A stretch of DNA of 64,000 bases, from the NCBI GenBank assembly GCA_005880985.1, contig VBIQ01000024.1, positions 6,429 through 70,428 on the forward strand, read 5' to 3'. The translations under genes and the position numbers were made by a program. Origin of the DNA: Chloroflexota bacterium (GTDB lineage Bacteria; Chloroflexota; Dormibacteria; Aeolococcales; Aeolococcaceae). Every line of letters starts with the position of its first letter. The first letter of the stretch is position 1. Below are positions 4,394 to 34,935 of the stretch, one piece after another. The notes below the pieces were generated by a model. It was not told where the DNA came from and made no database searches. It saw nothing but the letters and a program-made list of their open reading frames with translations.

Positions 4394-4515
4394 GCCGAGG
4401 AGCGAGCTACCACAAATCCGGATAGTTACACAGATCAGTGGTGGTCGTCAAACGAAGCGGACCCGTAGCGGAGAGGTGGCGGAGGGCCCGGGGTAGAATT
4501 CGGCGCCTGCCGCTG

Positions 4516-16000: not shown

Positions 16001-16730
16001 TGGCAATCCGATCACCGACTCCAACGGCAACCCGATGGGCGAGAACGGCCAACCGATCGGCGCCAGCACTGGACAAGACGCGTCACAGCAGACAACGAGC
16101 ACGACCGCGGATGGATCGCAACCGACTGCCACGGCCACGTCGGCCGATGCGTCGCAGCAGACCACGGCGACGTCAGACACCACTCAGCAGACGGCGACTG
16201 ATCCGACACAGCAGGCGGCGGCTCAGGCGGCAGTAGATCAAGCGGCCCAGCAGGCGACAGCCGACCAGGCGGCGCAACCGGCGGCCGACCAGGCGGCGCA
16301 GCAGGCGGCGGCGCAAGCGGCAGCGGACCAGGCGGCGCAGCAGGCGGCGGCGCAAGCGGCAGCCGACCAGGCGGCGCAGCAGGCGGCGGCGCAAGCGGCA
16401 GCGGACCAGGCGGCGCAGCAGGCGGCGGCGCAGGCGGCAGCGGACCAGGCGGCGCAGCAGGCGGCGGCGCAGGCGGCAGCGGACCAGGCGGCGCAGCAGG
16501 CGGCGGCGCAGGCGGCAGCCGACCAGGCGGCGCAGCAGGCGGCGGCGCAAGCAGCAGCAGACCAGGCGGCGCAGCAAGCAGCGGCGGACCAGGCCGCGGC
16601 GCAAGCGGCAGCCGACCAGGCCGCGGCACAGGCGGCAGCAGACCAGGCCGCGGCACAGGCGGCAGCAGACCAGGCGGCTGCGGACGCCGCCGCCGCCGCG
16701 TCCGCGGCACCGTCGGACGGAAGCAGCTAA
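13026..16730 (+). CDS. giant acidic repeat protein with N-terminal Nif11/NHLP-type leader-like domain (paralog 1 of 6); His/Pro/Gly-rich region, ~30x 15-aa HGEILGPDGxPILG repeats, C-terminal 13-aa QAAAD repeats
   Basis: GTG start with RBS (Val153 of track ORF 12570..16730). The N-terminus VADAAFRTVVARMAADPEFAARVRGDATSALAEFDLTDEERAQL...GQRISRSSLFFGGSGGS is shared with 5 downstream paralogs. There is no hydrophobic signal peptide. Confidence 0.75.
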   Translation: MADAAFRTVVARMAADPEFAARVRGDATSALAEFDLTDEERAQLALLESDTTSSAANLGQRISRSSLFFGGSGGSAPPGTVPHAAAEEAVQVAQAGDQPVVTVHETAAHAMAASGQADPTLASADLGQGGQPSLASEIQHEHDLDRQIAELRIERDLLDARITEQTLAGGGDPGLTSPGDGGAMVPGGLGHGVPGGVGGSPLEAIPSLGHPHPGAPHGGMPPGAVAHAEARHPGAPAGHAGGGVPGAPAVHPGGGSQPGVQAPGAGAGSAATPHGAGAPPVPPWAHPGAIAAAAHPGSAAAPPSPAGHGQHSFGGGAVRPGAGAGAATAPHAPGTTQHPGAGAGTASAPHPQTAAPVPDSVSHFARSVQDYVHRTHHQPSEEWYTYLRQHGAPPADDNYGPPPVHPGFTAPRPGTPFGPSPAAPTVSPQDAQLLPHTGDPVVDAANQHILADYLQHYHHRPTDAWLAYFRDFGHPPKDDLFGMPGHPHPDGPPAVGLKPKPDTTTTTSKPPKPGTTTGGGGGGGRPSGGGGAGASGGHPGGGSGGGGQPAGGGGGGGHGGHSGPTQPGGRGANPDPWGSMGVQDPGQWQEPHPGPHPPHPGDGTGDHGKHVPPTPDSTHDHLGPHGELIKADGSPILGPHGELLGADHKPILGTSGELLGPGMQGVLGPHGEIVGPDGKPILGENGEILGRDGSPLTGPHDEILGPNGKPILGDHGEILDFHSDPITGPHDEILGPDGKPILGAHGEILDVDGKSMVGSSGEILGPDGNPALGQHGEIIHPDGSPFLGNLGELQGPNGIPAHGSHGEILGPDGTPLLGANNELLRPDGDSLTGAHGEILGRDGTPITGSHGEILDPDMHQLTGGHGEILGPDGTPVLGSNGEILNTDGNAILGNNAELLKPDGTPVTGPHGEVLGDGGAPLLGPDHELQDANFAPILGSHGEILGGDGMPVLGGNGELMGPGGQQILGSHGEILDSGGKPILGLNGEILDTNGNPITDSNGNPMGENGQPIGASTGQDASQQTTSTTADGSQPTATATSADASQQTTATSDTTQQTATDPTQQAAAQAAVDQAAQQATADQAAQPAADQAAQQAAAQAAADQAAQQAAAQAAADQAAQQAAAQAAADQAAQQAAAQAAADQAAQQAAAQAAADQAAQQAAAQAAADQAAQQAAAQAAADQAAQQAAADQAAAQAAADQAAAQAAADQAAAQAAADQAAADAAAAASAAPSDGSS
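14890..16070 (+). repeat. about 30 tandem 45-bp coding repeats (15-aa unit G-x-HGE-I/L-LGPDG-x-P-I/L-L)
   Basis: Direct reading of translation: LGPHGELIKADGSPILGPHGELLGADHKPILGTSGELLGPG...GSHGEILDSGGKPILGLNGEILDTNGNPI. Confidence 0.8.
16210..16700 (+). repeat. about 10 tandem near-identical 39-bp coding repeats (AAQQAAAQAAADQ)
   Basis: The DNA unit gaccaggcggcgcagcaggcggcggcgca(a/g)gcggcagc(g/c) recurs head-to-tail at the 3' end of paralog 1. Confidence 0.8.
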
Positions 16731-16760: not shown

Positions 16761-18521
16761 GTGCTCTGTCCACAGTGTCACATCCACACGGACCCGGACT
16801 TCCCCTACTGCCTGCGCTGCGGGCGTCAGCAGGGCAACGGTTCCCTGAGCGGCTGGGCCCCGCCCGAGTTGCACCCGGTGGAAGCACCCGCGGTCGCCTT
16901 CCCGCTGGTGAAGCGCTCGGTCTCGGTCGGACGCGATGACGCCAACGACATCGTCGTCGAGGACGGTCGGGCGTCACGTCAGCATGCCCGGGTGGTCCGC
17001 GACCAGCAGGGCTATCGCGTCGAGGATCTCGACTCCCTGAACGGCACCTGGGTGAACGACGAGGTGGTGCGCGACTCCGGCCGCCGCCTCAATGATGGAG
17101 ACCTCATCCGCCTCGGGGCAACGCAGCTGCGCTTCGAGCAGCCGCGCACCTCGACGGTGGGGGGTCGGACGGTCGTCGACCTGGCACGGACGACGATGGT
17201 GCAGACCAGCACCGGTGGCATCCGTGAAGGCGACTCGGATGCCGCCGCCGGACCGCCGCTCGACCGCAGGCCCCGGCGCCACTCCGGCTGGGAGCTGAAG
17301 CAGGTTGCATCGGCGCAGAGCGAGCCGCGCTACGTGCTCCGCAACGCGCGCACCGGCCAGTACCTCCAGCTCACCGATCGCGATGTCTTCCTCTGGAACC
17401 TGCTCGACGGGGAGCACACCATCCGCGACCTGCTGCTCGCCTACGCGCAGCAGTACGGGCAGCTGGCGCTCGCACGCATCCAGGGACTGATGTCGCAGCT
17501 CGACGGTGCCGGGCTGATCGCTGGATGGCGGACCGCTCCGCCCGCGCAGTCTCCGGTCAGCGGTCTCCGTCGCGCGGGTCGTGCCACGGTCAAGGCCCTG
17601 ACCCGGATGGAGCTGGCCGTCGGTGGCATCGACGGGTTCCTGGGCCGCTTGTACACGCGTGTCGGCTGGTGGTTCTTCAGCCGTGCCGGCCAGGTCGTCG
17701 TCTGGGGACTGGTCGTGGCCGGGATCGTGGCGTTCTCGGAGGTGCGCAAGAACCAGCGACCCTTCGAGATCGCCGGTGCGGGCATCTGGGGAGTCGTCGC
17801 CGCATTTGCCGGCTACGTTCTCGCACTCACCATCCACGAGCTCGCCCACGCGCTCGCGGTGAAGTCGTACGGTCGGAGGGTCCACCGGGGCGGCCTGATG
17901 GTGATGATGGCGATGCCCTACGCGTTCGTCGACACCAGCGACATGTGGTTCGAGTCACGACGCGCCCGGATCGCCGTCTCCGTGGCCGGCCCGGCGTCCA
18001 CCGCGATGCTCGGGGGGATCCTGTCGCTCGGTGCGGCCTTCCTGCCGGGAGCCATCGCACCCGGCATCTGCTTCCAGGTCGCCTTCGGCCTCTACATCAA
18101 CACCGTTTTCAACCTCAATCCGCTCATCCCGCTCGACGGGTACTACGTCCTCATCGACCTCCTCGATCGCCCCCGTCTCAAGGAGGAGGCGGGCGCCTAC
18201 TTCCGCAAGGGACTCTGGGCCGACCTCCGGCACGGACGTCTGCCCGGCGCCGGTCAGCTGGCCCTTGCCGTCTACGGGGGCATCTCCTTCATCTCCACCA
18301 TCGGGTTCCTGCTGCTCGGCGTCTATGTCTGGCGGACCAGGCTGAGCACCCCCATCCGTGACCACGTCCCCGCGCCCCTCGACCAGGTCATCGTCGTCCT
18401 CGGACTCATCCTGCTGTTCTTCCCCGTGTGGTATGGACCGCTGACCAAACTCTCGCGGGTGGTGCGCCGCCGGCTGGAGAAGCTGCAAACGCCGGTGCAA
18501 CCGCAGCAGGTGCCGGCATGA
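16761..18521 (+). CDS. zinc-ribbon / FHA-domain / M50 (site-2-protease-type) intramembrane metalloprotease fusion
   Basis: N-terminal CPQC...CLRC zinc ribbon. FHA domain (VSVGRDDANDIVVEDGRASRQHARVVRDQQGYRVEDLDSLNGTWVNDEVV...GDLIRLGATQLRF). A polytopic membrane region follows, with the HExxH motif (IHELAHALAV) and the M50 NxxPxxxLDG motif (NLNPLIPLDGYYVL). Confidence 0.8.
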   Translation: MLCPQCHIHTDPDFPYCLRCGRQQGNGSLSGWAPPELHPVEAPAVAFPLVKRSVSVGRDDANDIVVEDGRASRQHARVVRDQQGYRVEDLDSLNGTWVNDEVVRDSGRRLNDGDLIRLGATQLRFEQPRTSTVGGRTVVDLARTTMVQTSTGGIREGDSDAAAGPPLDRRPRRHSGWELKQVASAQSEPRYVLRNARTGQYLQLTDRDVFLWNLLDGEHTIRDLLLAYAQQYGQLALARIQGLMSQLDGAGLIAGWRTAPPAQSPVSGLRRAGRATVKALTRMELAVGGIDGFLGRLYTRVGWWFFSRAGQVVVWGLVVAGIVAFSEVRKNQRPFEIAGAGIWGVVAAFAGYVLALTIHELAHALAVKSYGRRVHRGGLMVMMAMPYAFVDTSDMWFESRRARIAVSVAGPASTAMLGGILSLGAAFLPGAIAPGICFQVAFGLYINTVFNLNPLIPLDGYYVLIDLLDRPRLKEEAGAYFRKGLWADLRHGRLPGAGQLALAVYGGISFISTIGFLLLGVYVWRTRLSTPIRDHVPAPLDQVIVVLGLILLFFPVWYGPLTKLSRVVRRRLEKLQTPVQPQQVPA

Positions 18522-20176
18522 CCGCGACAGCCGTCGGTCCCTTCACGGTCGTCGCCGAGCTCGGCGGGGGGCGCCTTGGTCCGCTCTTCCTCGGCCGCCA
18601 CAGCACGTCAGGTGAGGCAGTCTGTCTGCGTCAGCTGGACCCGGCCTTGCTCGCACATCCGGAAGCCCGCGAGGCGGTCGTCCGTGCGGTGCGTCGCATC
18701 GCGACCACCGAGGCTCCGGGCGTCATCCGAGTCATCGATCTGCTCGAGTCGGGCAACCAGTGGTACCTGGTCAGCGCCCACGTCCCGGGCCCGACGCTGC
18801 GAGACCTGCTCGATCGGTCCCAGGCGCCACGCCTGCACGGCTTCATCGGCGATCCCAGCGCCGCCGCGGTGGTCCTCGGCGACGTCGGCCGAGCCTGCCT
18901 TGCCCTCCACGGTGCCGGCGTGGCTCACGGATCCCTGGGGCCGGCCTCGATCCTCTGCTCCGTCGACGGGGTCGCCCGTCTCGCCGACCCTGCGCTGCTG
19001 GCGATCACCACCGGCACCGCGACCGGGCCAGCCGCGGATGCACGCAGCTGGGGCGACCTCGCTCTTGTCCTGCGGCGGGCCTGGGTTCCGGCCAGAGAGG
19101 GCAGCAACTTCGACCGCGCCGCAGACCGGGCCGAGGCGGGAGACCTCCGGGCCGCAGTCGACACGCTCGACGGTCGCGAGCAGGGGGCGCGAGCGCGACT
19201 CGCCGTGGCGGCATCCGCGTGGGAGGCGACACGCTCGGCCTCGCCGGCGCCGTCCGCCTCGGCGGCAGTTCCCCTGTCCGCGGCAACGTCCGGCTCGGAG
19301 CGACCGACACTGCTCGACATCCCCGGTGCGTCGAGCGCGGCCGACGGCGGTCGTGCAACCGTGATCGAGCCGCCGCCCGCACCGCGGCCGTCGGCAATCC
19401 CGCCACCGCAGCAGACGGTGATCGAACCGCCGGTTCCCGCGCTGCGCGCCTCCGCCAGCGAGACCGTCATCGATCGGCCGCCGCCGAGGGCGGACCCGGT
19501 TGCACCCGCGGCCGGTGCGACCGTCGTCGATCGGCCACCGCCGGTGCCGCCGACAGTGCCACCGCCGGCAGGGTCGCCGCATCGTCTCGGCGCGACCCGG
19601 GCGGCACCTGCCGTGGACCCGCCGCCCACCCGCGCTGCGGGCGGGGTCCGTCCCGGCTCGATGGGTGGCGATGGAAGCGGCACCGCATCCAGTTCCTTGC
19701 TGGTCAGCGACCTCGCCGGTGGCGGCGGACTCCAGCCGGCCTGGCCGGCACCCGCGCCGCGCAGGCGGGAGACGCGCTACCCGCTGCTCATCGGCGCCGC
19801 GGTCGCGGTCGCCGTCATCGTCATCGGTGGTGTCCTGCTGGGCGTCATCCTCCGCCACGGCCAATCGCTGCAGGCCACCGCCGCCCAGGTGCAGATCGCG
19901 ACGCCGCAGGTGGGCTGCAACAGCACCGTCGACGTGGTCGGAGTGATCGGCCTCAACGGCCAGGCGGGAACCGTGGACTACGAGTGGCAGCGCAACGACA
20001 GCACCTCCACCGGAGGCGTGCAGCATCAGACCGTCTCCAGCGGCCAGCAGCAACTGGTCGCGCACCTGTCGTGGTCGCTGTCCGGCCCTGGGACGTTCCA
20101 GGGTCTCGCCACGCTGATCGTCCGCAGTCCCAATGCCCTGGCGCCGGCGCAGGGCAGCTTCCGCTACGTGTGCTGA
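18518..20176 (+). CDS. membrane-anchored protein-kinase-like (probable pseudokinase) protein with TVIE/DPPP repeats and extracytoplasmic C-terminal domain
   Basis: ATG at 18518 overlaps the M50 gene stop (ATGA). The N-terminus has a kinase N-lobe-like fold (FTVVAELGGGRLGPLFLGRH...AVCLRQL...VIRVIDLLESGNQWYLVSAHVPGPTLRDLL). The HRD-region lacks catalytic Asp (GVAHGSLGPASIL) and there is no DFG. The repeats are 4x (T/Q)TV(I/V)(E/D)xPPP. A TM helix LLIGAAVAVAVIVIGGVLLGVIL is followed by a ~130-aa C-terminal domain. Confidence 0.6.
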   Translation: MTATAVGPFTVVAELGGGRLGPLFLGRHSTSGEAVCLRQLDPALLAHPEAREAVVRAVRRIATTEAPGVIRVIDLLESGNQWYLVSAHVPGPTLRDLLDRSQAPRLHGFIGDPSAAAVVLGDVGRACLALHGAGVAHGSLGPASILCSVDGVARLADPALLAITTGTATGPAADARSWGDLALVLRRAWVPAREGSNFDRAADRAEAGDLRAAVDTLDGREQGARARLAVAASAWEATRSASPAPSASAAVPLSAATSGSERPTLLDIPGASSAADGGRATVIEPPPAPRPSAIPPPQQTVIEPPVPALRASASETVIDRPPPRADPVAPAAGATVVDRPPPVPPTVPPPAGSPHRLGATRAAPAVDPPPTRAAGGVRPGSMGGDGSGTASSSLLVSDLAGGGGLQPAWPAPAPRRRETRYPLLIGAAVAVAVIVIGGVLLGVILRHGQSLQATAAQVQIATPQVGCNSTVDVVGVIGLNGQAGTVDYEWQRNDSTSTGGVQHQTVSSGQQQLVAHLSWSLSGPGTFQGLATLIVRSPNALAPAQGSFRYVC

Positions 20177-20189
20177 CGGAGTCGCATCG

Positions 20190-21164
20190 ATGTCGGAGCG
20201 AGTGCTGCGGGTGGTGGTCGAGCGGATGGCCGCCGACCGCGAGTTCTCCGCCCTGGTCAAGCAGGATCCCGAGAACGCGCTCGGCGACTACGACCTCACC
20301 GACGACGAGCGCGGCACCGTCCTCGGCCTCGGCGCCGACGCGACCGGCCGGGCGCATCGACTGGCGCCGCGGCTGACCAAATCATCGCTGGTCTTCGGCC
20401 ACCTCGGGAGAGGCGTCGACCATCTCGGGGCGGCGCACTCGACGGGAGGTCATGAGGCCCCTCTCGATGTGGGGACCCCGGTGCATGGCGCCGTGGATGT
20501 CGGGCTGACGCCGGCATCGGATGCCGACCAGGTCGGGACCTCGTTCACGCCGCACGGGTCGGGAGTCGACATCTTCGAGGGCGTCCCCGCCGGCTGGTCG
20601 CTCCCCGAGCCCGGCGCTCACGGGGATGCCGGGGTCGCCGGCCTCGGGGGCTCGCCGTGGGAGGCCAGCGCCGGAGTCGACACGGCGTCGATGCCTGCCG
20701 ATGCGGCGTCGCATAACCTTGCGTGGGACGCCATGCCGGCGCATGCAGTGGGCACCGGTGTCGCCACCGACCCCGGTGCGCTGAGCATCGGAGCTCACGG
20801 CGACGCGAGCGGTGGTTGGTCGCCGCCGGGTGGTGGAGGAGACGCGGCGGTCTGGCAGCTCCCCCAGCATGGCGATGGCACCGAGGCCGGGCTCGGCGGC
20901 GGTGGTGTTGCAGGGACCGGAGCGGTCGTGCTCGGTGGCCCCGGCGCCGACGTCGAGCGGATCCCCGGTCTCGGCGAGCTCTTCGCGTCCGGGACTGCTG
21001 TCGGCGAGCTCGCCGGTGGCGTGCCCGTCGATGTTCTCGACACATTCGGGAGCCTCGGCCACAGCGTCGTCGCCAGCATGACCACCGCGATCACCACCTC
21101 GGTCGGCGATGCGTTCTCGGTGGGTGCGGCGCCCATCCGGTACATCGAAGACATCAACTGGTAG
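20190..21164 (+). CDS. Gly/Ala/Asp-rich protein with N-terminal Nif11/NHLP-type leader-like domain (paralog 2 of 6, shortest, 324 aa)
   Basis: The N-terminus is MSERVLRVVVERMAADREFSALVKQDPENALGDYDLTDDERGTVLGL...RLTKSSLVFGHLG. ATG at 20190 (Met20 of track ORF 20133..21164). Confidence 0.7.
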   Translation: MSERVLRVVVERMAADREFSALVKQDPENALGDYDLTDDERGTVLGLGADATGRAHRLAPRLTKSSLVFGHLGRGVDHLGAAHSTGGHEAPLDVGTPVHGAVDVGLTPASDADQVGTSFTPHGSGVDIFEGVPAGWSLPEPGAHGDAGVAGLGGSPWEASAGVDTASMPADAASHNLAWDAMPAHAVGTGVATDPGALSIGAHGDASGGWSPPGGGGDAAVWQLPQHGDGTEAGLGGGGVAGTGAVVLGGPGADVERIPGLGELFASGTAVGELAGGVPVDVLDTFGSLGHSVVASMTTAITTSVGDAFSVGAAPIRYIEDINW

Positions 21165-21185: not shown

Positions 21186-24100
21186 ATGTCGAGAGACGCA
21201 CTGACCGAGGCGATCGCCAGGATGGCGACCGACGCAGACTTCGCGGAGCGCGTCCGCCATGATCCCGACGTCGCACTCTCCGACTACCCGCTGACCGCGG
21301 AGGAGCGCCGGAGCCTGGCGTCGATGAGCGCCGATGACGCCGGCGGCTCGTCGCCGCTGGGGCAGCGGTTGTCCAAGTCCAGCCTGTTCTTCGGCGCTGC
21401 CGCCGGTGGCGGCGGCGGAGCTGCTGCGCCGGCCGTCGACGATACGGGCTCGGGACGTCCCGACGCGGGCCACGGTGTGGTGCTCGCAGACACCTCGGGA
21501 TCTCCGGGGGGCACCGATGGTCACGGTCATGGTGACGGCGCAGTCGGCGACGGGTCTCACCCTACCGGGGCGCCGATGGATGCCGCCGGACATGCCACCT
21601 CGGTGACGATGGACCTGTACGGCCACCGGCCCCCCGAGGAGATCCCGCCACCGGCCGGCCCCACCGGTCATTCGGTCGCGGCCACCTACGACGCCGACCG
21701 GCACGTCTGGGTCGATGCCGCCACCGGCTCCACCTACGACCCGACCCGCGGCCTTTGGTGGGATCCCAACCGCAGTGTCCACTACGATCCGTGGCACGGG
21801 CTGATCACCGACACTCCGGTTGATTTCGACAAGTTCGTCCACTACGTTCCTGTGCCGCCGGATAGCGGGCCGCTCGGCTCCTCCGTCCACGCCGTCTGGA
21901 GTCCGCACGACGGCGTGTGGATCGACCCATTCACCAACGCCCAGTGGGATGCGGGCCACGGGACCTGGCATGCGCCCTACTCGTCCGACCCCTACCCGTC
22001 GGGGGGCGGAGGCACGCCCGATCCCAAGCCGGCGGCGCAAGATGCCGACGGCACGGTGCACCGCCCTGCGTGGGATCCGGTGCACGGGAGGTGGATCGAC
22101 TACGACCGCGGGACCACGTACAACCCGCAGACCGGCAGCTGGGACCAGGCATTCGAGCGGCCGCCGCTGGGTCCCGACGGGAAGGATGTATCGCCCACAT
22201 GGGCCAACGGTCACTGGACCGACCCGTCGACCGGTGCGCAATACGACTCCCGCTGGCACATCTGGACCAACCTTCCCGGCGGCCACACGTACGATCCGTG
22301 GACCGGCGACCGCGACGTCAGCTCGACGAGCGCTTCCTACTACAACAAGGACGTCCCGGCCACCGACCCCTTCGGGCGTCCGTTCCATCCGGTCTACGAC
22401 CAGGCGACCGGCGACTGGACGGATCCGGTCACCGGCGCCCATTACTCACCGAGCCACCAGTGGGTCTCACCCCTCGACTACCACCGCTTCACGCCCGGTG
22501 AGACGCCGCCCGGCGATCCGCCCGTCGATCCGCAGGGGAGGCACCCGGTGTGGGAGCCGGGGCGAGGTGGTTGGGTTCTGCCGCAGAGCGGTCAGACCTG
22601 GGACCCGGACACCGGGTCGTGGAGCGTGCCGACTCTCGACGCGCCGCCCGCCGGGCCCCACGGCGAGTCCATCGATGCGAGGTGGGACCAGGCGCGAGGC
22701 GTGTTCGTCGACCCGTCGAGCGGTGCGACCTACGATCCGAAGACCGGCGTCTGGGCCGATCCCGGCGGTCAGCGCTGGTACGACCCGTGGAGCGGTAAGA
22801 GCGCCGACCACGCCATCAACGCGGATCCGGCCGACGTGCAGGCGCGGATGCAGGCACCGAATGCCGGTCCTTTCGGCGGTTCGGTCTACCCCAACTGGGA
22901 CCCGGCGACGCACCAGTGGATCGATCCGACGACCGGTGCGCACTGGAACGGTTCCGACTGGGTTGTGCCCGGCAGCGGTCACGTGTACTCCTCCGACGAC
23001 GCGCAGCCGACGAGCGACCCGCCGACGCCGCGCTCGGTCTGGGATCCGTCGACCCAGTCGTGGGTCGAGCCGGTGAGCCAGGTGCCGCCGCCCGATGGTC
23101 CGGCGGGCCCACAGCCCGTGGTCGATGATCCCCACCCGACTGTCACGCTTGGTCCGACCGATACGTACCATTACATCGGCGACGACGGACAGATCCACGT
23201 GCACATCGGAGTCGATGTCAACGATCCGTCGACGTGGCCGCATGGGTGGTGGCCCCCGGGCGTGGATGTCGGCGACTCCTCGACGTGGCCGCAGGGCTGG
23301 GCGCCGCCCGACTCAGCGCAGTCGAGCCTCGATCCCAATGGAATCGAAGGCAGGACTGGCGCGTGGCTCGATGCTCAGGGCAACCTCCACACCTTCGCCG
23401 ACAACCTCGACCCCACCAATCCACACACGTGGCCGTGGGTGCACGCGGACGATCCGACAACATGGCCGCGCGGTTGGATGCCGGAGCAGCCGACCGGCCC
23501 GCACGACCAGACCGTGCCGGACATCCCGACTGATGTTGTCGTGCCGACGTTCGGCGACCCGATGCCAGGTCCGTTCGGCGACTCCATCACACCGATGTGG
23601 GATGACGCGACAGGTCAGTGGGTGGATCCCTACACCGGTGCGCACTTCGATGGCAGCAACTGGACGACGCCGAGCGGCTACGTGCTCACACCCGCGGATG
23701 CGCCGCCGACGCTCAAGCCGTTCACCGGCGACGCGGTGTGGGACCCCCAGCAGCAGGCCTGGGTCGATCCCCGGACCGGGGATCCCCTGCCGCCCGCTCC
23801 AGAGGATGCCGTGATACTGGGCATGGATCAGCCGAGCGGTCTCACGGTCACGCCGCCGTCGGGCCAGGACTGGACCAGCCTGCTTCCGGCACCCGACACG
23901 GCGCCCGGCGGCGATGGCGGAACGTGGCAGAGCCTCCTTGGTCCGGATGGATCGTCGACAGAGACGCCGCCGGTGGACCAGACGCCGCTGGACCAGACGC
24001 CGCTGGATCAGACGCCGCTGGTGGACCAGCCGCAATCCGACCAGCCGCCGCTGGACCAGACGCAATCCGACCAGCCGCCGGTGGACCAGACGCAATCCGA

Positions 24101-24254
24101 CCAGCCGCCGCTGGACCAGACGCAATCCGACCAGCCGCCGCTGGACCAGACGCCGCCGGTGGACCAGACGCAATCCGACCAGCCGCCGGCCGATCAGCAG
24201 ACCACAGACGAGTCACCGTCCGACCAGCAACCGGTCACGCAGTCGGCGAGCTGA
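21186..24254 (+). CDS. giant acidic repeat protein with N-terminal Nif11/NHLP-type leader-like domain (paralog 3 of 6); multiple W-x-DP-x-TG-x-x-YD aromatic repeats; C-terminal PLDQT(Q)SDQP decapeptide repeats
   Basis: The N-terminus is MSRDALTEAIARMATDADFAERVRHDPDVALSDYPLTAEERRSLASM...GQRLSKSSLFFGAAAGGGGG, with RBS GGGGGAA upstream. 1022 aa, no signal peptide. Confidence 0.8.
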   Translation: MSRDALTEAIARMATDADFAERVRHDPDVALSDYPLTAEERRSLASMSADDAGGSSPLGQRLSKSSLFFGAAAGGGGGAAAPAVDDTGSGRPDAGHGVVLADTSGSPGGTDGHGHGDGAVGDGSHPTGAPMDAAGHATSVTMDLYGHRPPEEIPPPAGPTGHSVAATYDADRHVWVDAATGSTYDPTRGLWWDPNRSVHYDPWHGLITDTPVDFDKFVHYVPVPPDSGPLGSSVHAVWSPHDGVWIDPFTNAQWDAGHGTWHAPYSSDPYPSGGGGTPDPKPAAQDADGTVHRPAWDPVHGRWIDYDRGTTYNPQTGSWDQAFERPPLGPDGKDVSPTWANGHWTDPSTGAQYDSRWHIWTNLPGGHTYDPWTGDRDVSSTSASYYNKDVPATDPFGRPFHPVYDQATGDWTDPVTGAHYSPSHQWVSPLDYHRFTPGETPPGDPPVDPQGRHPVWEPGRGGWVLPQSGQTWDPDTGSWSVPTLDAPPAGPHGESIDARWDQARGVFVDPSSGATYDPKTGVWADPGGQRWYDPWSGKSADHAINADPADVQARMQAPNAGPFGGSVYPNWDPATHQWIDPTTGAHWNGSDWVVPGSGHVYSSDDAQPTSDPPTPRSVWDPSTQSWVEPVSQVPPPDGPAGPQPVVDDPHPTVTLGPTDTYHYIGDDGQIHVHIGVDVNDPSTWPHGWWPPGVDVGDSSTWPQGWAPPDSAQSSLDPNGIEGRTGAWLDAQGNLHTFADNLDPTNPHTWPWVHADDPTTWPRGWMPEQPTGPHDQTVPDIPTDVVVPTFGDPMPGPFGDSITPMWDDATGQWVDPYTGAHFDGSNWTTPSGYVLTPADAPPTLKPFTGDAVWDPQQQAWVDPRTGDPLPPAPEDAVILGMDQPSGLTVTPPSGQDWTSLLPAPDTAPGGDGGTWQSLLGPDGSSTETPPVDQTPLDQTPLDQTPLVDQPQSDQPPLDQTQSDQPPVDQTQSDQPPLDQTQSDQPPLDQTPPVDQTQSDQPPADQQTTDESPSDQQPVTQSAS
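23965..24200 (+). repeat. tandem 30-bp coding repeats (PLDQTQSDQP and variants), about 7 copies
   Basis: Direct reading: TPLDQTPLDQTPLVDQPQSDQPPLDQTQSDQPPVDQTQSDQPPLDQTQSDQPPLDQTPPVDQTQSDQPP. Confidence 0.75.
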
Positions 24255-24291
24255 TGGATGGGCACACCGTGTCGGTAGAAGAGGGGGTCTC

Positions 24292-26520
24292 ATGTCGAAT
24301 CGAGGCTTGACTGATGCCCTCGCCCGGATGGCCTCAGACGACGCCTTCGTGCAGGCGGTGCGAACAAACGCAGAGGAGGCCCTGGCCGGGTACGAGCTCA
24401 CCGACGATGAGCGGCGCTCTCTCGCCGCGGTGAGGACGGAGGCGGCGGGTCGCGGGCCGTCGTCGTTGGGCCAGCGCCTGTCGAAGTCCGGCCTGTTCGG
24501 GATGAGCGGTGGCGGGGGAGGGACTGAGGCACTGCCCGCGCCGCCCGATTCCCTCGAGGCGGATGGCCAACTGGGCGGCGACCTCGCCCCGCCGCCAGAC
24601 ATCGCGGTCGATCAGATGCCAGACCAATCCGACGGTCCGTGGCAGAGCCTGCTTGCCGCCGGCACGGAGATGGACACCACCGTGGTCCAGCCCGTGGACG
24701 GAGGCGATCAGGGGATGGTCAACGTCTCATCGCCCGATGCGACGGCGACCGACCAGTCGATGGACGCGACCTCGACCGACACCACCGACAGGACGGCGAC
24801 TGATCAGCAGCTGTCGGGCGCTGCGCCTGACGGCCAGCCGACTGATCAGTCGCCCACCGACCAATCGCCCGTCCAGGCGGGATCGGATCCGGGGCAGGCA
24901 GCCGGGGCGCAGCCCACGACCGACGCAGCAGGTGCACCCGATGGTGCCCCGAACGCGCCGTCATACGGACCTGACGGCACGTGGATCCACGCCGAGTACG
25001 ACCCCCAGTCGGGTGAGTGGGTCGACCCGGTCACGGGCGCGCACTACAACGCAGCGACGCAGACCTGGTATGAGCAGGCGACTGGCCAGGCGTACCAACC
25101 GCCCGACACCGACCCTCCCACCTACGGTCCCGACGGTCGCTTCGCACACCCCCGGTATGACTTCGGACAGCACCAGTGGATCGATCAGGACACAGGGGCG
25201 CGTTACGACACCGCGAGTCAGCAGTGGCTCGACCCCACGACAGGGACGCCGCTGCAGGGACCGACAGGTGACCCACCAATGGGCGGACCGGACGGTCATC
25301 CGGTGCATCCGACGTACGACTTCGGCGCCAAGGCCTGGACCGATCCCGCCACCGGCGCGCTCTGGGACCCTGACAAGCAGGCGTGGGTCGACCCGTTCAG
25401 TGGCAACGCGTACCCGCCGGACTACAGCGGTCCCGCCTACGAACGGCCGACGAGCGATCCGTTCGGTACCGAGTATGCGGGCCTGCCGAACAATGTGACC
25501 TACGACCCCGCTCGCAACGCGTGGGTCGACCCGATGACCGGCGCGCTCTACGACCCCAACAACAACCAGTGGTACAGCCCGTGGGACCGGCATCCCTTCG
25601 AGCCGAGCGACCCGATGCCCTCGACCATGCCACCGGGTTTCGATCCCTTCGGTCAGCCCGTGCACGCCGTGTGGGACCCATCCGGCGACACTTGGGTCGA
25701 TCCCACAACGGGCGCGCGTTTCGACCAATCGACCGGGACGTGGTCGGACCCGCTGACCCAGCACGTGTACACCGGCGCTGAGCATCGCCCGCCGGCTCCG
25801 GTTGTGCTCCAGCCGCCAGACGAGTTGCGTCACGAATACGGCTCCCACGCCATCACCTTCGGTGGACCGCCCACGGCTGGTCCGCTGGGCGACGGCATTC
25901 CCGCGGCATGGGATCCCGTTCTCGGCCAGTACTACGACCCGACGACCGGCCTCCACTCCGTCAACGGAACCTGGTACTCGCCGGCCAGCGATCAACCGTC
26001 GGAAGCGACCTTCAGGCCGGGGATTTCACCGCCACCGGCCGAGCAACCCACCGACACCCCCAGCGGTTCACACGCGGTGTACGACCCGTACTCGCAGCAG
26101 TGGCGCGACCCGGTGACCAAAGCGTGGTACAGCGCGAAGGGAGACTTCTGGTTCGACCCGGCGCCCGGGCAGGTGCACGATGCGGGTGACTTCCGACCCA
26201 GCGCCCCGCCGCCGGACACCGGTCCGACGGGAGATCCGGTGAAGCCCACCTGGGACTTCCGCCACAACGAGTATGTCGATCCAGCCTCGGGCCGCGTCTA
26301 CTCGGCTGAGCGCGGCTTCTGGTATCGGGCGCTGCCCGCCTCCGACTCGCCGAACTGGGAGCACCCGGGCTCGCCGCCTCCGGCCAGCGGGCCGACGGGG
26401 AAAGCAACCGATCCCGTCTGGGATCGGGAGAACGCCGAGTGGCTCGATCAGTCGACTGGCGCCAGGTACGACCCTCTGCTGGGGACCTGGTCGCAGGGCG
26501 CAGGGGCTGGCGCCCCATGA
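24292..26520 (+). CDS. giant acidic repeat protein with N-terminal Nif11/NHLP-type leader-like domain (paralog 4 of 6); W-x-DP-x-TG-x-x-YD aromatic repeats
   Basis: ATG at 24292 is preceded by GAAGAGGGGGTCTC. The N-terminus is MSNRGLTDALARMASDDAFVQAVRTNAEEALAGYELTDDERRSLAAV...GQRLSKSGLFGMSGGGGG. The upstream part of track ORF 23914..26520 overlaps the paralog 3 3' end and is rejected. Confidence 0.8.
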   Translation: MSNRGLTDALARMASDDAFVQAVRTNAEEALAGYELTDDERRSLAAVRTEAAGRGPSSLGQRLSKSGLFGMSGGGGGTEALPAPPDSLEADGQLGGDLAPPPDIAVDQMPDQSDGPWQSLLAAGTEMDTTVVQPVDGGDQGMVNVSSPDATATDQSMDATSTDTTDRTATDQQLSGAAPDGQPTDQSPTDQSPVQAGSDPGQAAGAQPTTDAAGAPDGAPNAPSYGPDGTWIHAEYDPQSGEWVDPVTGAHYNAATQTWYEQATGQAYQPPDTDPPTYGPDGRFAHPRYDFGQHQWIDQDTGARYDTASQQWLDPTTGTPLQGPTGDPPMGGPDGHPVHPTYDFGAKAWTDPATGALWDPDKQAWVDPFSGNAYPPDYSGPAYERPTSDPFGTEYAGLPNNVTYDPARNAWVDPMTGALYDPNNNQWYSPWDRHPFEPSDPMPSTMPPGFDPFGQPVHAVWDPSGDTWVDPTTGARFDQSTGTWSDPLTQHVYTGAEHRPPAPVVLQPPDELRHEYGSHAITFGGPPTAGPLGDGIPAAWDPVLGQYYDPTTGLHSVNGTWYSPASDQPSEATFRPGISPPPAEQPTDTPSGSHAVYDPYSQQWRDPVTKAWYSAKGDFWFDPAPGQVHDAGDFRPSAPPPDTGPTGDPVKPTWDFRHNEYVDPASGRVYSAERGFWYRALPASDSPNWEHPGSPPPASGPTGKATDPVWDRENAEWLDQSTGARYDPLLGTWSQGAGAGAP

Positions 26521-26542
26521 GGTCGGTACAAGAGAGGACGTC

Positions 26543-28729
26543 ATGTCGAATCAGAGTGTGAGCGATGCCCTAGCCAGGATGGCTTCGGACGAGACGTTTG
26601 CGCAGGCTGTGCGCAAGAACGCCAGGAAGGCTCTGGCCGGCTACGACCTTACCGACGATGAGCAGCGCGCTCTGGCGACGATGACGACAGAGGCTGCCGG
26701 TCGAGCGCCGTCCGCGCTTGGCCAGCGCCTGTCGAAGTCCAGCCTCTTTGGGATGAGCGGCGCTGGTGCGGGAGCGGCCACACCCTCCGCAGACCCCGGT
26801 GTCGTCGGAGACGATGCGCAACCCGGCGGTGACGGATCGACCGCGGGAGGAAACGGCGAGGCGGGTGTCGACGACCAGACTGTCGACTCCGCCCCGATCG
26901 TGCCGGTCGATGCCAGCATGGTCGACGCTCCCACCAGCGATATGGCCGACGCAGCGAATACGGGAACGGTCGGCGACGGTGGCGGGAGCGAGTGGACGAG
27001 TCTGATCGACACCTCATCCGGCGACACCGGCAATGGTGGCGGCACTGGCGGCGACGTGAGCGCGGCTGGAACTGTGGTTGCCGATCCCAGCACGGCCGAC
27101 GTCGACCCGTCAACCGGCGGGTCTGTCGTCGGCGGCGATGTTATGCAGTCTCCGGACGGCCCTGTCGGTCAGACATCCGCCCAAACCGATGACCCGTGGC
27201 AGAGCCTGCTTCACATTGGCTCAGCACCCGATGCGACGGCGCCCGGCCAGTCCGGGGACGCGACGTCGACCGATGCCACGTCGACCGACACCACGTCGAC
27301 TGACACCACATCGATCGATCCGCAGACGGGCCAGCCCGCGGACCTGACGCCGACCGACGGCACTGCCTTGTCCTCGGACCGGGACGGCGCCGTCGATCCG
27401 TCGACGGCGAGTGTGCCTGTGGGCAGTACGGCGGCCTCTACGGATGCCACGGGGACGGACAAGCAGCCCCTGGAGGCAGCGTCCACGGCTCAACCAGTCG
27501 ACGGAGCGCCGACGCACGGAACGGGTACCACTGACGCCACAGGTCACACCGACACCATAGGGAACACGCTGACGGATCAGCAGACGCAGGACGGTGGGGG
27601 TGGCGGACAGCAACCGACCGATCAGCAGTCGACCGATCAGCAGTCGACCGATCAGGCCTCCTCAACCACCCAGACCAACCCCGACGGGACGAGCACCACG
27701 TCGTGGACCGACTCGCAGGGCAACAAATGGGACGTCCATTTCGGGACCGACAACAACCAGTCCAGCTACACGGTGACCCATCCCGACGGTTCGGTCGAAC
27801 AGCACAAGCCGGACGGAACGTGGTTGTCCACGACGGTTCCGCATCCCGACGGTTCGGGTCCCGCGGCATCGCTTCCGAACTCGCACAGCACCCCGGTGTG
27901 GGATGCCACGACCCACGGGTGGCGTGACTCGTACACCGGGCTGACATCGTCGGATGGGACTCACTGGCATAGTGACTATATGGACAACAAGCACAGCGAG
28001 GATGTCACTTCAGTTTCCGACAAGCCAACGACGGATTCGCTAGGGAAACAGGGATCGGTGTCGTACCATGCCGCGCTGAATCAGTGGGTTGACTATCAGA
28101 CAAACGCCCATTGGGACGACAAGGCACAGCATTGGATGATCTCCACAACAGCCCATCCCGGTGGCGAACCGGTTCAGGACAGGCCTCAGGCCGATCCGTA
28201 TGGTCACGCAGGCGGATCTGTAACCTACAACCAGTCCGCCAACAGCTGGTATGATCCCAATGCTCGTGCGTATTGGGACGACAAGACGCATCAGTGGCTC
28301 AGTTCGGACGATGCGACTCACGGACAGCCGTTTGTCGTCAACAAGGCGCCGATGCCCGCGGCGAATCCGGACGGGACCATCTTCGGCTCGTACCATGTCA
28401 GCCACTACGACGCCAAGTCCGGTGAGTGGGTCGACGACTGGACTGGCGCGCACTACCACAACCAGGGCGGCAGTTGGTATGACCCCGGAACCAAGCACCT
28501 CTACACGCCGGGCCAGTTGGAGCGTGACAAATACCCTGAGCTGCCTGACAAGTATGCGCCGGGTGGGCCGGGTGGAAGTACGGGGGATGGCTGGCACGCG
28601 GTCTACGACCCCTACAACAAGCAATGGTACGACCCAACGACTCACGCCACGTGGGATCCGTCTAAGCATGTCTGGAACGATCCGCCGGCAAAGCCGGCAC
28701 CCGCCTCACCGGGTGACGTTCGCCCATGA
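26543..28729 (+). CDS. giant acidic repeat protein with N-terminal Nif11/NHLP-type leader-like domain (paralog 5 of 6); QSTDQQ repeats and W/Y/H-rich aromatic repeats
   Basis: ATG at 26543 is preceded by AAGAGAGGACGTC. The N-terminus MSNQSVSDALARMASDETFAQAVRKNARKALAGYDLTDDEQRALATM...GQRLSKSSLFGMSGAGAG is about 90% identical to paralog 6 over the first ~220 aa. Confidence 0.8.
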   Translation: MSNQSVSDALARMASDETFAQAVRKNARKALAGYDLTDDEQRALATMTTEAAGRAPSALGQRLSKSSLFGMSGAGAGAATPSADPGVVGDDAQPGGDGSTAGGNGEAGVDDQTVDSAPIVPVDASMVDAPTSDMADAANTGTVGDGGGSEWTSLIDTSSGDTGNGGGTGGDVSAAGTVVADPSTADVDPSTGGSVVGGDVMQSPDGPVGQTSAQTDDPWQSLLHIGSAPDATAPGQSGDATSTDATSTDTTSTDTTSIDPQTGQPADLTPTDGTALSSDRDGAVDPSTASVPVGSTAASTDATGTDKQPLEAASTAQPVDGAPTHGTGTTDATGHTDTIGNTLTDQQTQDGGGGGQQPTDQQSTDQQSTDQASSTTQTNPDGTSTTSWTDSQGNKWDVHFGTDNNQSSYTVTHPDGSVEQHKPDGTWLSTTVPHPDGSGPAASLPNSHSTPVWDATTHGWRDSYTGLTSSDGTHWHSDYMDNKHSEDVTSVSDKPTTDSLGKQGSVSYHAALNQWVDYQTNAHWDDKAQHWMISTTAHPGGEPVQDRPQADPYGHAGGSVTYNQSANSWYDPNARAYWDDKTHQWLSSDDATHGQPFVVNKAPMPAANPDGTIFGSYHVSHYDAKSGEWVDDWTGAHYHNQGGSWYDPGTKHLYTPGQLERDKYPELPDKYAPGGPGGSTGDGWHAVYDPYNKQWYDPTTHATWDPSKHVWNDPPAKPAPASPGDVRP

Positions 28730-28839: not shown

Positions 28840-31800
28840 ATGTCGAGTCAGAGTGTGAGCGATGCCCTCGCCAGGATGGCTTCGGACGAGACGTTTGCGC
28901 AAGCGGTGCGCAAGAACGCCAGGAAGGCTCTGGCCGATTACGACCTCACCGACGATGAGCGGCGCGCTCTGGCGACGATGACGACAGAGGCCGCAACTCG
29001 AGGGCCCTCCACGCTCGGCCAGCGCCTGTCGAAGTCAAGCCTCTTCGGGATGAGCGGCGGTGGGGGAACGGCTGCACCCGCCGCAGCGCCCGGTGAGCTC
29101 GTGGACGATGCGCAAGGCGGCGGTAACGGAGCGACTGCGGGGGGAAACGGCGAGGCGGGTGTCGATGACCAGACTATCGACGCCGCTCCGGTCGTGCCAG
29201 TCGATGCCAGCATGGTCGACGCGCCCACCAGCGTGATGGCCGAGGCAGCCGATACGGGAACGGTCGGCGACGGCGGCGGCGGGAGCGAGTGGACGAGTCT
29301 GATCGACACGTCGTCCGGCGATACCGGCGACGGTGGCGACGCTGGTGGCGACGTGAGCGCTGGCGAAACCGTGGTTGCCGATCCCAGCACCGCTGAAGTC
29401 GACCCGTCGACCGGCGGATCCTCCGTCGGCGGCGATCCCGTGCAGTCGCCGGACCTTGCTGCCGGTCAGACGTCCGACCAACCTGATGGCGCGTGGCAGA
29501 GCCTGCTCGGCAATGGTAGCGCGACAGCTGAGCCGGCGGTTCTCACGTCGGCGCCCGTCGCCGAGTCCTCGGGTGCGAGTTCTCCCTCTGACGTCGTCCT
29601 GGTTGACGCGACCTACGACACCGGAACCGCCGACACGACCGTGACCGAGTCCGGCGATGGGAGCGACCAGGTGACGGTCGATGCCTCATCACCCGACGCG
29701 ACGGACGCCGCGCCTGCCGATGCCACGTCGACTGACGCCGCTCCGATCGATGCGCAGGCGGGCCAGTCGCTGGATGCGACCTCAACCGACGGCACGGACT
29801 CGACCTCGGGCGGGAATGGCGCCGTCGATCCGGCGATGACAGGCCAGGCAGTGGACAGCACGACAGGCGATACGGCGGGCACCACCGATACCACGGGGAC
29901 GGATCAGCAGCCAGCCGATCAGCAGTTGACCGATCAGCAGTCGACCGACCAGCAGTCGACCGACCAGCAGTCGACCGACCAGCAGCCCACCGACCAGCAG
30001 TCGACCGACCAGCAGCCGACCGATCAGCAGCCGACCGATCAGCAGCCGACCGATCAGCAGCCGACCGATCAGCAACCGATCGATCAGCAGTCGACCGACC
30101 AGCAGTCGACCGATCAGCAACCGACCGATCAGCAACCGACCGACCAGCAGTCGACCGACCAGCAGTCGACCGACCAGCAACCGACCGACCAGCAGAGTAC
30201 CGACCAGCCCACCGACACCAGTGGGGGTGATGGCGGGCACGATGGAGTGGTCGACCCGGCCGGAACTGCCGGTCTGGTGGGGGCCGATGCCGCAGCGCAG
30301 GCTGGTGCCGCGGCGGCTCAGGGTTCGGTTGCCGAGACCGCACAGGGTGCAGGCGCGCAGCCAGCCGCCGCGGGTGCAGTGCCCGCCGCTGTACCGGCCG
30401 CCGCTGCGCCGCCGCCGCCACAGGCTGCCTCGGTACCCGCGGTGCCGGCTGCGCCCACACCGGCTGCGGCCGCACCCGCGCCCGCCCAGGCCGCGGCCGC
30501 ACAAGCGCCCGCACAGGCGCCCGCACAAGCGGCCGCACAAGCGCCCGCACAAGTGCCCGCACCGGCCGCGCCTGCACAGGTGACCCCCGCGCCGGTTGCA
30601 CCCGCACCCGTCGCGCCTGCCGTCGACTACACGAAGGGATTGAACCCATTGCCTCCGGACTCGCCGGACTACATCAAGGAATGGTGGCAGCAGGTCAAGG
30701 CTGGAGACCCGCAGGCCATCCAGAGCTGGCACGACACTATGGGGACTATCGACGACACCGCTCGACACGGGGCGCAGCAGGCTCAAGCTGCTGCCGAGTT
30801 CAAGGCAGCGCAGTCGCAATCGGGGTGGGAGAAGGCAACGCAGTTTGTCGGCGATACGCTCGACAACGCATCGCAGACGGTAAAGGACACAGCTGCCCAG
30901 GCGAGCGAGAAGGCCGGTCAGGCATTCGATGCTGCGGCTCCGACCCTGCAGAAGTTCTCTGACACTGTGTACTCGGCGGGAGCCCAGGCAATCTGGGGTG
31001 ACGAGAGCGCGGCTGCGCAGCAGGCTGCCGAGGCCAAGGGCGGTGCGGTCGACGAGACCAGCCCGACGATGGCGTTCGTCAAGAGTCTCTACAACGAGAA
31101 CTGGTCGGAGGACGCCCTGAAGACACTGGCGCCCGTCGGACAGGGAATCATCGACTTCGGGACCAGCACCGCCCAGAGCATCGCCGACATTCCGCACGGG
31201 ATCGCCCAGTTGAGCACGCTGAGCACCGATGAGGTGAAGGCTCTGATCAAGCCGATCACGGACATCCCGGGCGGGATCGCCGAACTCAGGTCGATGAACG
31301 TCGACGAGCTCAAGGGCACCCTGATGCAGACCCTGGTCGACGGTCTCGAGGCGACGGGGCACCATGACCTTGCCCAGGGAGTGCAGGACGGCCGGCTGGA
31401 TGTTCCGACAGCCTTACTCAAGGTGGGCGACGACGCGATCAAGGACGTCAAGCATTGGACCAACGACCAGGTCCAGATGGCTCGGGACAATCCTGACCAA
31501 TTCCGTCAGGTCTGGGGCCACCGCACCGGGACGCTGATCGGCCAGATCCTGCTGGCGGAGGCGACCGGCGGCGGAGGCGGAGGCGCCGCCGGCGAGGGCG
31601 CGGCCGCGGAGGGCGGCCTCGCTCGCGGAGCATTGGCCGAGGGCACTGCGGCGGAGGGCTCCGTTGCGCGTGGGGCTCTGGCCGAGGGCACAGCGACCGA
31701 AGCCGGCGTGGCCCGCGGTGCTGTGTCGGAAGGGACCAGCGTCGAGAGCGCCGCTGCGCGAGGCGGCGTCAGTGAAGGAGCCGGTCCTCTCGAGCGACCG

Positions 31801-34925: not shown

Positions 34926-34935
34926 CGAGTCGGTC

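Follow-up and report, generated by a model that had tools for sequence, protein, structure and literature searches.

The OCRE domain is known in single copies from eukaryotic splicing regulators. In RBM5 it has two aromatic faces: Tyr464, Tyr471, Tyr480 and Tyr487 build a ladder behind a shielding N-terminal extension, and Tyr470, Tyr479, Tyr486, Tyr488 and Tyr495 form an exposed surface that binds a proline-rich SmN motif (eLife, PMC5127646). Here, a 64,000-nt stretch of the genome assembly of a Chloroflexota bacterium of the Dormibacteria (GCA_005880985.1, contig VBIQ01000024.1, positions 6,429 to 70,428), in the following called the window, is described. It carries genes for six paralogous proteins (P1 to P6), three of which (P3, P4 and P5) have C-terminal arrays of a Trp-rich module of ~50 aa that is matched, above the threshold in P3 and P4, by the OCRE profile of Pfam (PF17780).

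The modules and the RBM5 and RBM10 OCRE domains (PDB entries 5MF9/5MFY and 2MXW) have in common the aromatic imperfect octamers, the core [YW]-D-P-x-T-G-x-[YW]-D and, as far as predicted, a small antiparallel meander. Four aromatic residues of the module align with the buried ladder, over which an N-terminal extension with Pro forms a cap in the eukaryotic domains. The modules differ in having one Trp or Tyr per strand, and the tyrosine face that binds the proline motif is not kept. Furthermore, OCRE is a single-copy domain of nuclear RNA-binding proteins in RBM5 and RBM10, whereas here 5-9 or more tandem copies are located in an acidic bacterial protein behind an NHLP-like leader.

For the leader and its putative peptidase, comparison is possible with MpaP of the daptides and with YydH/LiaK. 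In daptide biosynthesis, the leader is removed by an RRE fused to the site-2-type intramembrane protease MpaP (bioRxiv 10.1101/2023.03.08.531785). Like these systems, the locus in the window combines an RRE located N-terminally of an M50 site-2-type protease, adjacent genes sharing a leader, and a set of paralogous substrates. The substrates of the known systems are short peptides, in contrast to proteins of 324-1463 aa in the window, and the protease described here has an extra FHA domain and kinase-like partners. Modifying enzymes and a conserved transporter are absent.

Identification of the repeat modules

The module was modelled as a profile hidden Markov model (HMM) that was seeded with 15 segments from P3 and P4 only, P5 being left out of the seed. 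The three genes and the modules detected in them are listed below. All coordinates refer to the window, with position 1 as its first letter, and all listed genes are located on the + strand; GC3 is the G + C content at third codon positions.

21186..24254, + strand: P3 gene, 1022 aa, G-rich sequence like a ribosome binding site upstream, GC3 0.83
21660..23780, + strand: P3 array, 9 full and 2 partial modules (module HMM; Pfam OCRE 57.2 bits, E 1.7e-15)
21660-21809, 21870-22019, 22044-22193, 22173-22316, 22368-22514, 22524-22673, 22656-22805, 22869-23012 and 23571-23711, + strand: full modules of P3 (module HMM)
23034-23087 and 23730-23780, + strand: partial modules of P3 (module HMM)
24292..26520, + strand: P4 gene, 742 aa, ATG start codon, GAGGGGG upstream
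24970..26517, + strand: P4 array, 9 almost contiguous modules (module HMM; Pfam OCRE 70.7 bits, E 1e-19)
24970-25119, 25129-25278, 25288-25437, 25474-25623, 25645-25794, 25882-26025, 26053-26202, 26224-26373 and 26392-26517, + strand: modules of P4 (module HMM)
26543..28729, + strand: P5 gene, 728 aa, ATG start codon, GAGAGGA upstream, GC3 0.74
27887..28726, + strand: P5 array, 4-5 degenerate modules (HMM seeded without P5; Pfam OCRE 17.8 bits)
27887-27976 (weak), 28037-28186, 28199-28348, 28379-28528 and 28577-28726, + strand: modules of P5 (module HMM)

In an earlier note on this DNA, P3 to P5 had been described as built from dozens of degenerate aromatic repeats of ~22 aa between positions 21700 and 28700. 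These positions are about right, the four peptides quoted as examples are present (P3 aa 236-258, 293-319 and 342-360; P4 aa 339-368), and the repeats are real. For a loose version of the motif, 7 matches were counted in P3, 11 in P4 and 2 in P5; ~0.04 would be expected, and none of 2000 shuffles that preserved the composition had more than 1-2. The strict version W.DP.TG..[YWF] was counted 4, 4 and 0 times (~0.001 expected). The period had to be corrected. The autocorrelation of the aromatic residues peaks at lags of 7, 9 and 16, the last ~2.5-fold over expectation, and shows no peak at lag 22. The repeating unit is a module of ~44-50 aa with start-to-start distances of 43-79 aa, typically 53-57 (most of P4), and the 17-aa motif quoted earlier is the centre of one such module, so that about two dozen modules take the place of dozens of 22-mers. 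Only the C-terminal parts of the proteins are built of them; the N-terminal parts (P3 aa 1-158, P4 aa 1-226, P5 aa 1-448) are free of modules; they start with a leader-like domain and continue as acidic low-complexity sequence.

The module has the consensus P-x-G-x6-[YW]-D-x5-W-x-D-P-x-T-G-A-x-[YW]-D-x5-W-x-x-P-x5-[YF]. Its aromatic residues are spaced 7/9/7/9 (mean 8) and occupy columns 10, 17, 26 and 33, plus column 42 in half of the modules. Every module is opened by a conserved G-P-x-G boundary, W33 is present in all 22 modules and D19 in 21 of them, at a module-to-module identity of ~30% on average. The module HMM gave 11 matches in P3 (9 full), 9 in P4 and 5 in P5. The P5 modules are far more degenerate than those of P3 and P4 and were detected with independent E-values of 1.6e-4 to 2e-12. 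No modules were found by this search elsewhere in the window, where the next best open reading frame (ORF) has an E-value of 0.047. The array regions are composed of 14-16% Pro, 10-12% Asp and ~10% Gly and have low-complexity flanks.

From the N-terminus, P3 consists of the leader-like domain, a Gly-rich and acidic linker, the OCRE-like array, a second Trp repeat and a (QSDQPPxDQT)n tail. According to the translation, this second repeat, D-P-[ST]-T-W-P-x-G-W-x-P-P, is present in 3-4 copies at aa 650-775 (23133-23510) and splits the array. Between the window and a metagenome contig (L001), the only difference in P3 is a deletion of 30 aa at 24063-24152 (P3 aa 960-989), which corresponds to three units of the C-terminal tandem repeat QSDQPP[LV]DQT; the OCRE-like region is identical. 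In P5, a hairpin-like stretch, TSWTDSQGNKWDVHF...HPDGSVEQHKPDGTW, lies directly in front of the modules (aa 385-445, 27700-27880) and has a weak Pfam match to Tcp10_C (E 0.005).

Assignment of the modules to the OCRE family

The Pfam OCRE profile has a gathering score of 24.7, which is exceeded by P3 and P4 with the scores given above, and the best-scoring stretches fall within the delineated modules. Seven control sequences, obtained from the P3 and P4 regions by reversal or shuffling, resulted in zero Pfam matches at E<=1. Therefore, neither the composition nor the bare periodicity accounts for the OCRE match.

A profile of 22 modules was furthermore compared to all PDB sequences. Contiguous matches to a single domain were obtained only for OCRE of RBM5 (5mf9, E 2e-4) and of RBM10 (2mxw, E 3e-3), in both cases across 32 residues in register. 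In the alignment, the module columns 10, 17, 26 and 33 correspond to Tyr464, Tyr471, Tyr480 and Tyr487 of RBM5 and are aromatic in 22, 22, 21 and 22 of the 22 modules. The module also contains the approximately five imperfect, aromatic-marked octamer repeats that define OCRE.

Structure prediction with AlphaFold2 resulted in a predicted local distance difference test (pLDDT) value of 80 for a single module, with 87-88 in its core, and in four short strands at residues 9-11, 16-18, 25-27 and 32-34. For a segment of four modules (pLDDT 76.8, predicted template modelling score 0.48), the four-strand unit is repeated four times, and the linkers are mostly confident. The repetitive, beta-rich fold postulated earlier instead of disorder is thus supported by the models. 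The segment is modelled as discrete four-stranded mini-sheets and not as a continuous solenoid. The four conserved aromatic residues are cross-strand neighbours in the model and should share one face.

Among 350,542 PDB chains searched with Foldseek, 5mf9 and 2mxw take ranks 1 and 2 for the single module, with a TMq of 0.44-0.50, a root mean square deviation (rmsd) of 2.5-2.9 Å and 29-30% identity; at E-values of ~1, which are not significant, this is consistent with OCRE but no proof. With the four-module model, no meaningful global match was obtained in Foldseek, and the top Foldseek probability (0.57) belongs to 5mf9.

Taking alignment and models together, each module of ~50 aa is predicted to be an independently folding antiparallel meander of four to five strands. 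It would be held by a one-sided aromatic ladder, [YW]10-W17-[YW]26-W33, by tight turns at Asp-Pro and Thr-Gly and by a Pro/Gly-rich cap, P-x-G...H-P. Short Pro-rich linkers are predicted to join the modules into a long, acidic, Cys-free multi-domain rod; all six paralogs are acidic (isoelectric points of 4.05-4.73) and contain zero Cys.

Distribution of the module

The module profile was used in a HMMER scan of 1.84 billion representative proteins. Four proteins were found below an E-value of 1e-30, namely P3, P4, P5 and one metagenomic protein, P0004. The E-values of this true family range from 1e-52 to 1e-136, and all other matches have E-values of 1e-14 or weaker. A word-indexed search with full-length P4 gave only P4 and two paralogs among the matches listed.

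P0004 (721 aa as called) is the sole other representative with the exact module and is encoded on a 3.6-kb contig of the JGI metagenome 3300062720. Its five modules are colinear with modules 2-6 of P4 at 46, 52, 48, 54 and 40% identity. This ordered identity lies above the ~30% mean between modules and indicates that the array is old and that each module is individually constrained. In P0004, the modules precede a transmembrane helix, a linker rich in Thr and a C-terminal domain that contains Cys. Being short, probably frameshifted and truncated, the contig does not allow the presence of a leader to be judged. Upstream on the same contig (L004, 52-1356), in another frame that points to a probable frameshift, Trp-rich repeats of the form GxWxWxxxWNWxPD and three copies of ESESDRWEREHGYGG are encoded.

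The weaker matches are mostly Pfam-OCRE-positive proteins of unrelated architecture. They include the haloarchaeal 'OCRE domain-containing protein' WP_331234275.1 of Natronorarus salvus, a surface protein with SLH and Flg_new domains (P0005), an Rhs-associated tip protein (P0016) and a collagen-like protein of a giant virus. In addition, a marginal OCRE match has been published for a Salmonella Rhs protein. WP_331234275.1, P0005 and P0016 resemble the arrays in their Pfam OCRE match and in tandem Y/W-D-P-x-T-G hairpins in non-eukaryotic proteins, but they are distant in sequence, have other architectures and possess neither an NHLP-like leader nor an M50 partner. OCRE-like repeats of prokaryotes are therefore already labelled in databases and are unstudied; the labels are automatic, and no function is known for these look-alikes. 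The Trp-based tandem array is a rare variant among them.

Leader domain and putative leader peptidase

The N-terminal ~70 aa of all six paralogs match the NCBIfam family NF038399 (Os1348-family, NHLP clan) over nearly its full length, with E-values of 2e-5 to 7.5e-10. In the alignment of the six paralogs, the domain terminates in LGQRLSKSSLFFG, which is followed by a Gly run. The leader domains of the three array proteins, the gene of the presumed leader peptidase and the kinase-like gene conserved with it are:

21186..21401, + strand: NHLP-like leader domain of P3 (NF038399, E 8.6e-8, 32.2 bits), ending in ...LGQRLSKSSLFFG and then the Gly run
24292..24507, + strand: NHLP-like leader domain of P4 (NF038399, E 5.6e-8, 32.8 bits)
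26543..26758, + strand: NHLP-like leader domain of P5 (NF038399, E 7.5e-10, 38.8 bits, profile positions 2-63 of 63)
16761..18521, + strand: protein with FHA, PqqD-like RRE and M50 intramembrane metalloprotease domains (Pfam FHA, PqqD, Peptidase_M50), presumed leader peptidase for the six paralogs
18518..20176, + strand: kinase-like transmembrane protein, probable pseudokinase (Pfam Pkinase), conserved with the protease

Residues 190-528 of the protease match the daptide intramembrane metalloprotease family NF041824 (E 5.5e-39) and, more weakly, the YydH/LiaK family NF058609 (E 1e-7). In an alignment of 14 homologs, neither HExxH nor NxxPxxxLDG varies (H359, E360, H363, N453...D459-G460). The protein is thus an RRE fused to an M50 protease with intact zinc motifs, encoded beside leader-bearing presumed substrates.

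More than 270 homologs of the protease with 45-62% identity were found in Streptomyces, Catellatospora, Hamadaea and Dormibacteria. From an alignment of the 14 homologs, 80 related genome loci were retrieved, where a single protease sequence as query gave none. In ~68 of the 80 loci, an ORF carrying the leader ends ~10 nt upstream of the protease gene and contains ...R-[LQ]-SK-[ST]-.... The leader homologs of Streptomyces, Catellatospora and Dormibacteria score like those of the window against NF038399, i.e., below its cutoff. Their cargo ORFs encode 270-780 aa with acidic low-complexity C-terminal regions that are Gly/Asp/Phe- or Thr/Gly-rich, and OCRE-like modules are absent from all ~68 of them. 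In the lineage of the window the cargo is expanded to six paralogs, and the arrays appear to be one lineage-specific version of a hypervariable repetitive cargo behind a conserved NHLP-like leader.

Of the 80 loci, 73 also have a homolog of the kinase-like gene. In the protein of the window, the Pkinase match covers the N-terminal half only and HGSLGP replaces HRDLKP, and it is probably a pseudokinase with a transmembrane helix and a small Cys-containing extracytoplasmic domain. Between this extracellular domain and the C-terminal domain of P0004, no similarity was detected. The Streptomyces loci have an extra canonical Ser/Thr kinase gene between the kinase-like gene and the protease gene. 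PADLOC reported generic kinase-fold matches only and no recognised defence system. The literature search gave no description of a system of a leader-bearing protein and an FHA-RRE-M50 protease. The FHA-RRE-M50 protease, the leader-bearing low-complexity protein and the (pseudo)kinase form a conserved module of Streptomyces, Micromonosporaceae and Dormibacteria that, judging from the literature searched, appears to be undescribed.

In their acidic disordered regions, the paralogs repeatedly contain a short motif, W-[QT]-S-L-[LI], at P3 aa 896 and 914 (~23871 and 23925), at P4 aa 117 (~24640) and at P5 and P6 aa 151 and 219. In 54 of 68 cargo homologs of other genera, its equivalent x-S-L-[LI]-G-[GD] is located at a distance of 110-160 aa from the N-terminus, which suggests that the leader is accompanied by a second conserved linear motif.

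Interpretation and alternative explanations

With moderate confidence, the C-terminal arrays of P3 to P5 are interpreted as tandem OCRE-type mini-domains that are carried as cargo behind a leader processed by the FHA-RRE-M50 protease, the released array being a multivalent scaffold. Most likely, the PqqD-like RRE of the neighbouring protease would bind the leader on the cytoplasmic side, and the M50 domain would then clip it near the conserved SKSSLFFG/Gly-run junction, by analogy to known leader peptidases. Binding and clipping are proposed because of the homology to the leader peptidases MpaP of the daptides and YydH and because of the conserved gene pairing. The FHA domain and the kinase-like partners would gate the clipping via Ser/Thr phosphorylation. 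Most likely, the released array would offer a multivalent scaffold or a surface to which other proteins bind, with the Pro-rich P1 and P6 as possible partners, and would not act as a peptidoglycan or choline binder or anchor the protein to the wall; this step, which we infer, is the weakest of the proposal.

Several observations weigh against this interpretation. The OCRE score of P5 (17.8 bits) is below the Pfam cutoff of 24.7, and the Pfam match spans ~30-35 of the 52 profile positions. The 'aromatic-D-P-x-T-G' hairpin shared with OCRE could be convergent, and YDPxTxxW is shared with Kelch and designed-Kelch entries of the PDB, which score high only as sums of many 9-residue matches to it. 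There is one aromatic residue per strand, mostly Trp, versus the Tyr triplets of OCRE (among the 22 modules, 0-2 have an aromatic residue in each of the flanking columns 16, 25 and 32, and 7 have one in column 34), and the columns aligned to the RBM5 residues Tyr470, Tyr479, Tyr486, Tyr488 and Tyr495 are aromatic in only 0, 2, 2, 7 and 1 of the 22 modules. The AlphaFold2 alignments hold paralogous modules only (22 rows for the single module, 5 rows for four modules). The leaders of the six paralogs reach 24.7-38.8 bits with a curated cutoff of 40, and the protease stays below the equivalog cutoffs of NF041824 (134 vs 300 bits) and NF058609 (31.8 vs 225 bits) and is no member of either equivalog. 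Finally, a BLAST-level comparison of the protease neighbourhoods of three groups at the level of phyla gave only the protease gene itself and shadow ORFs as conserved, and no transporter.

Since the ligand-tyrosine columns are rarely aromatic, an RBM5-like ligand pocket is not conserved, and the module is predicted to retain the structural core and the turns of OCRE without this pocket. Accordingly, the fold assignment is a strong claim, and the binding of proline-rich motifs is a weak analogy. With the core of the fold kept, the known ligand surface lost and the domain multiplied up to nine-fold, the arrays would be a natural example of fold versus function. [quoted passage not shown] This proposal is improbable; if true, it would give the first functional prokaryotic OCRE array. 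The leader/protease context may outweigh the repeats in importance. The OCRE-like paralogs are the only cargo predicted to fold so far, which makes them the most tractable handle on the system.

Common ancestry with OCRE is the point at issue in the first alternative, a convergent hairpin repeat, in which folded aromatic beta-meanders would resemble OCRE as well as WW and Kelch hairpins. The shared motif [YW]-D-P-x-T-G is indeed short and turn-driven, as the 9-aa Kelch matches illustrate, and both the Trp singlets in place of Tyr triplets and the missing RBM5 ligand tyrosines would fit. Such convergence is nevertheless considered rather unlikely, as the Pfam OCRE score is well over the threshold with clean negative controls, and in the contiguous, in-register alignment of 32 aa to 5mf9 each of the four aromatic ladder residues falls on the ladder of RBM5. 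Moreover, other prokaryotic proteins with such a repeat are already labelled OCRE by NCBI, and no Pfam WW match was found at E<=1. It is very unlikely that the proteins are largely disordered and of low complexity, with the OCRE match and the AlphaFold2 confidence as artefacts of internal repetition. The Pro/Asp/Gly-rich region with its low-complexity flanks and the shallow, paralog-only modelling alignments would allow for it, but the position-specific conservation (W33 in 22/22, D19 in 21/22), the ordered correspondence with P0004, the pLDDT of 85-90 in the module core and the shuffled and reversed controls, which miss OCRE, argue for a folded module.

The earlier note had favoured an adhesin- or wall-associating beta-solenoid that resembles cell-wall/choline-binding or Rhs/YD repeats. 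In this reading, the arrays would tether an adhesin or a matrix protein to the wall after its secretion. Aromatic hairpins with YD and TG pairs are present in the arrays, an acidic and Cys-free composition is typical for many secreted repeat proteins, the Rhs-associated P0016 has a similar repeat, and a weak OCRE match has been reported for an Rhs protein. In the four-module Foldseek list, the choline-binding modules of LytB and LytC and RhsA lead by E-value (0.14-0.25), and the teneurin YD shell takes rank 13 for the single module, with a local superposition of 2.1 Å rmsd over 30 columns. The global superpositions of the four-module model on LytB, LytC and RhsA reach template modelling scores of only 0.12-0.13 at an rmsd of 16-20 Å, however, and the periodicity of 7/9/16 in modules of ~50 aa differs from 20-22 aa. 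Pro-rich linkers interrupt the modules, and there is no continuous shell. Together with the confident match to another established family, OCRE (PF17780), a result that the earlier note had itself named as refuting its reading, this makes a wall-anchoring solenoid a remote prospect. The postulated delivery to the surface is not supported: no conserved transporter was found at the related loci, and the recognition of the leader by the FHA-RRE part is presumably cytoplasmic.

Least credible of all is a multi-core RiPP precursor, from which each module of ~50 aa would be excised as a core, possibly modified, to yield many Trp-rich peptides per gene. The NHLP-like leader, the RRE and the homolog of leader peptidases in the context as well as the G-P-x-G boundary at every module start recall such precursors. 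However, the window lacks genes for modifying enzymes such as radical S-adenosylmethionine enzymes, YcaO, P450 or lanthionine synthetase, and none is conserved across the 80 loci. The modules are ~70% different from each other, unlike those of multi-core precursors, and are predicted to fold. The cargo of the other genera is furthermore unrelated low-complexity sequence of 300-780 aa.

Other repeat families and surface signals were examined as candidates and rejected. As stated in the earlier note, the repeats match neither choline-binding nor YD repeats: no match at E<=1 was obtained for CW_binding_1 (PF01473), the family of LytA, LytB and LytC, or for the Rhs/YD profiles (RHS_repeat, PF05593; TIGR01643) in Pfam and NCBIfam. 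The arrays contain no choline-binding consensus GW...WYY by regular expression search and no YDxxGR or DPxGL motif. For the Kelch motif, only YDPxTxxW hairpins of 9-13 aa were matched, with no single stretch being significant and no Pfam Kelch match. The layout W...GxxY...WxxP of the module recalls WW domains (PF00397), but the Trp-Trp spacing is 16 versus 20-22 in WW, and no WW structure is among the Foldseek matches. A sortase- or Tat-dependent surface protein was rejected as well: the sequence scan of the six paralogs revealed no hydrophobic or transmembrane segment, signal peptide, Tat motif or C-terminal sortase motif.

Further features of the gene cluster

The genes are part of a same-strand cluster at 13.0-33.2 kb of the window, which has a G + C content of ~71%. 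The remaining paralogs are:

13026..16730, + strand: paralog 1 (P1), 1234 aa, with the leader common to the paralogs, without OCRE-like modules, 16-aa GPHGEILGPDGxPILG repeats
20190..21164, + strand: paralog 2 (P2), 324 aa, leader present, zero modules
28840..33231, + strand: paralog 6 (P6), 1463 aa, with leader, Pro/Ala-rich, (TDQQx)n and (EAPTQxYPxG)n repeats, without modules

A G-rich sequence resembling a ribosome binding site precedes the start codon of every paralog gene, and GC3 in the chosen frames is 0.74-0.83. An identical P4 is encoded on 5 metagenome contigs, on which independent gene calls gave equal protein lengths; P3 was called there as well. In NCBI, P4 is named 'MAG: hypothetical protein E6J14_14960 [Chloroflexi bacterium]'.

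Upstream of the cluster, a Tad/CpaF-type secretion ATPase, a SAF-domain (CpaB-like) gene and a separate FHA protein with a weak T2SSE-like ATPase region are encoded (window 2457-4447, 9339-10670). Directly downstream of P6, on the minus strand at 33255-36867, genes for a PrsW-family intramembrane protease and a VWA-domain protein are located, neither of which is conserved across the 80 related loci. In P1, ~24 copies of the 16-aa repeat GPHGEILGPDGxPILG were counted at aa 620-1000 (14880-16030), followed by a (AAQQAAAQAAADQ)n tail at 16100-16700. With its G-P-x-G element, this repeat recalls the cap at the N-terminus of the OCRE-like modules.

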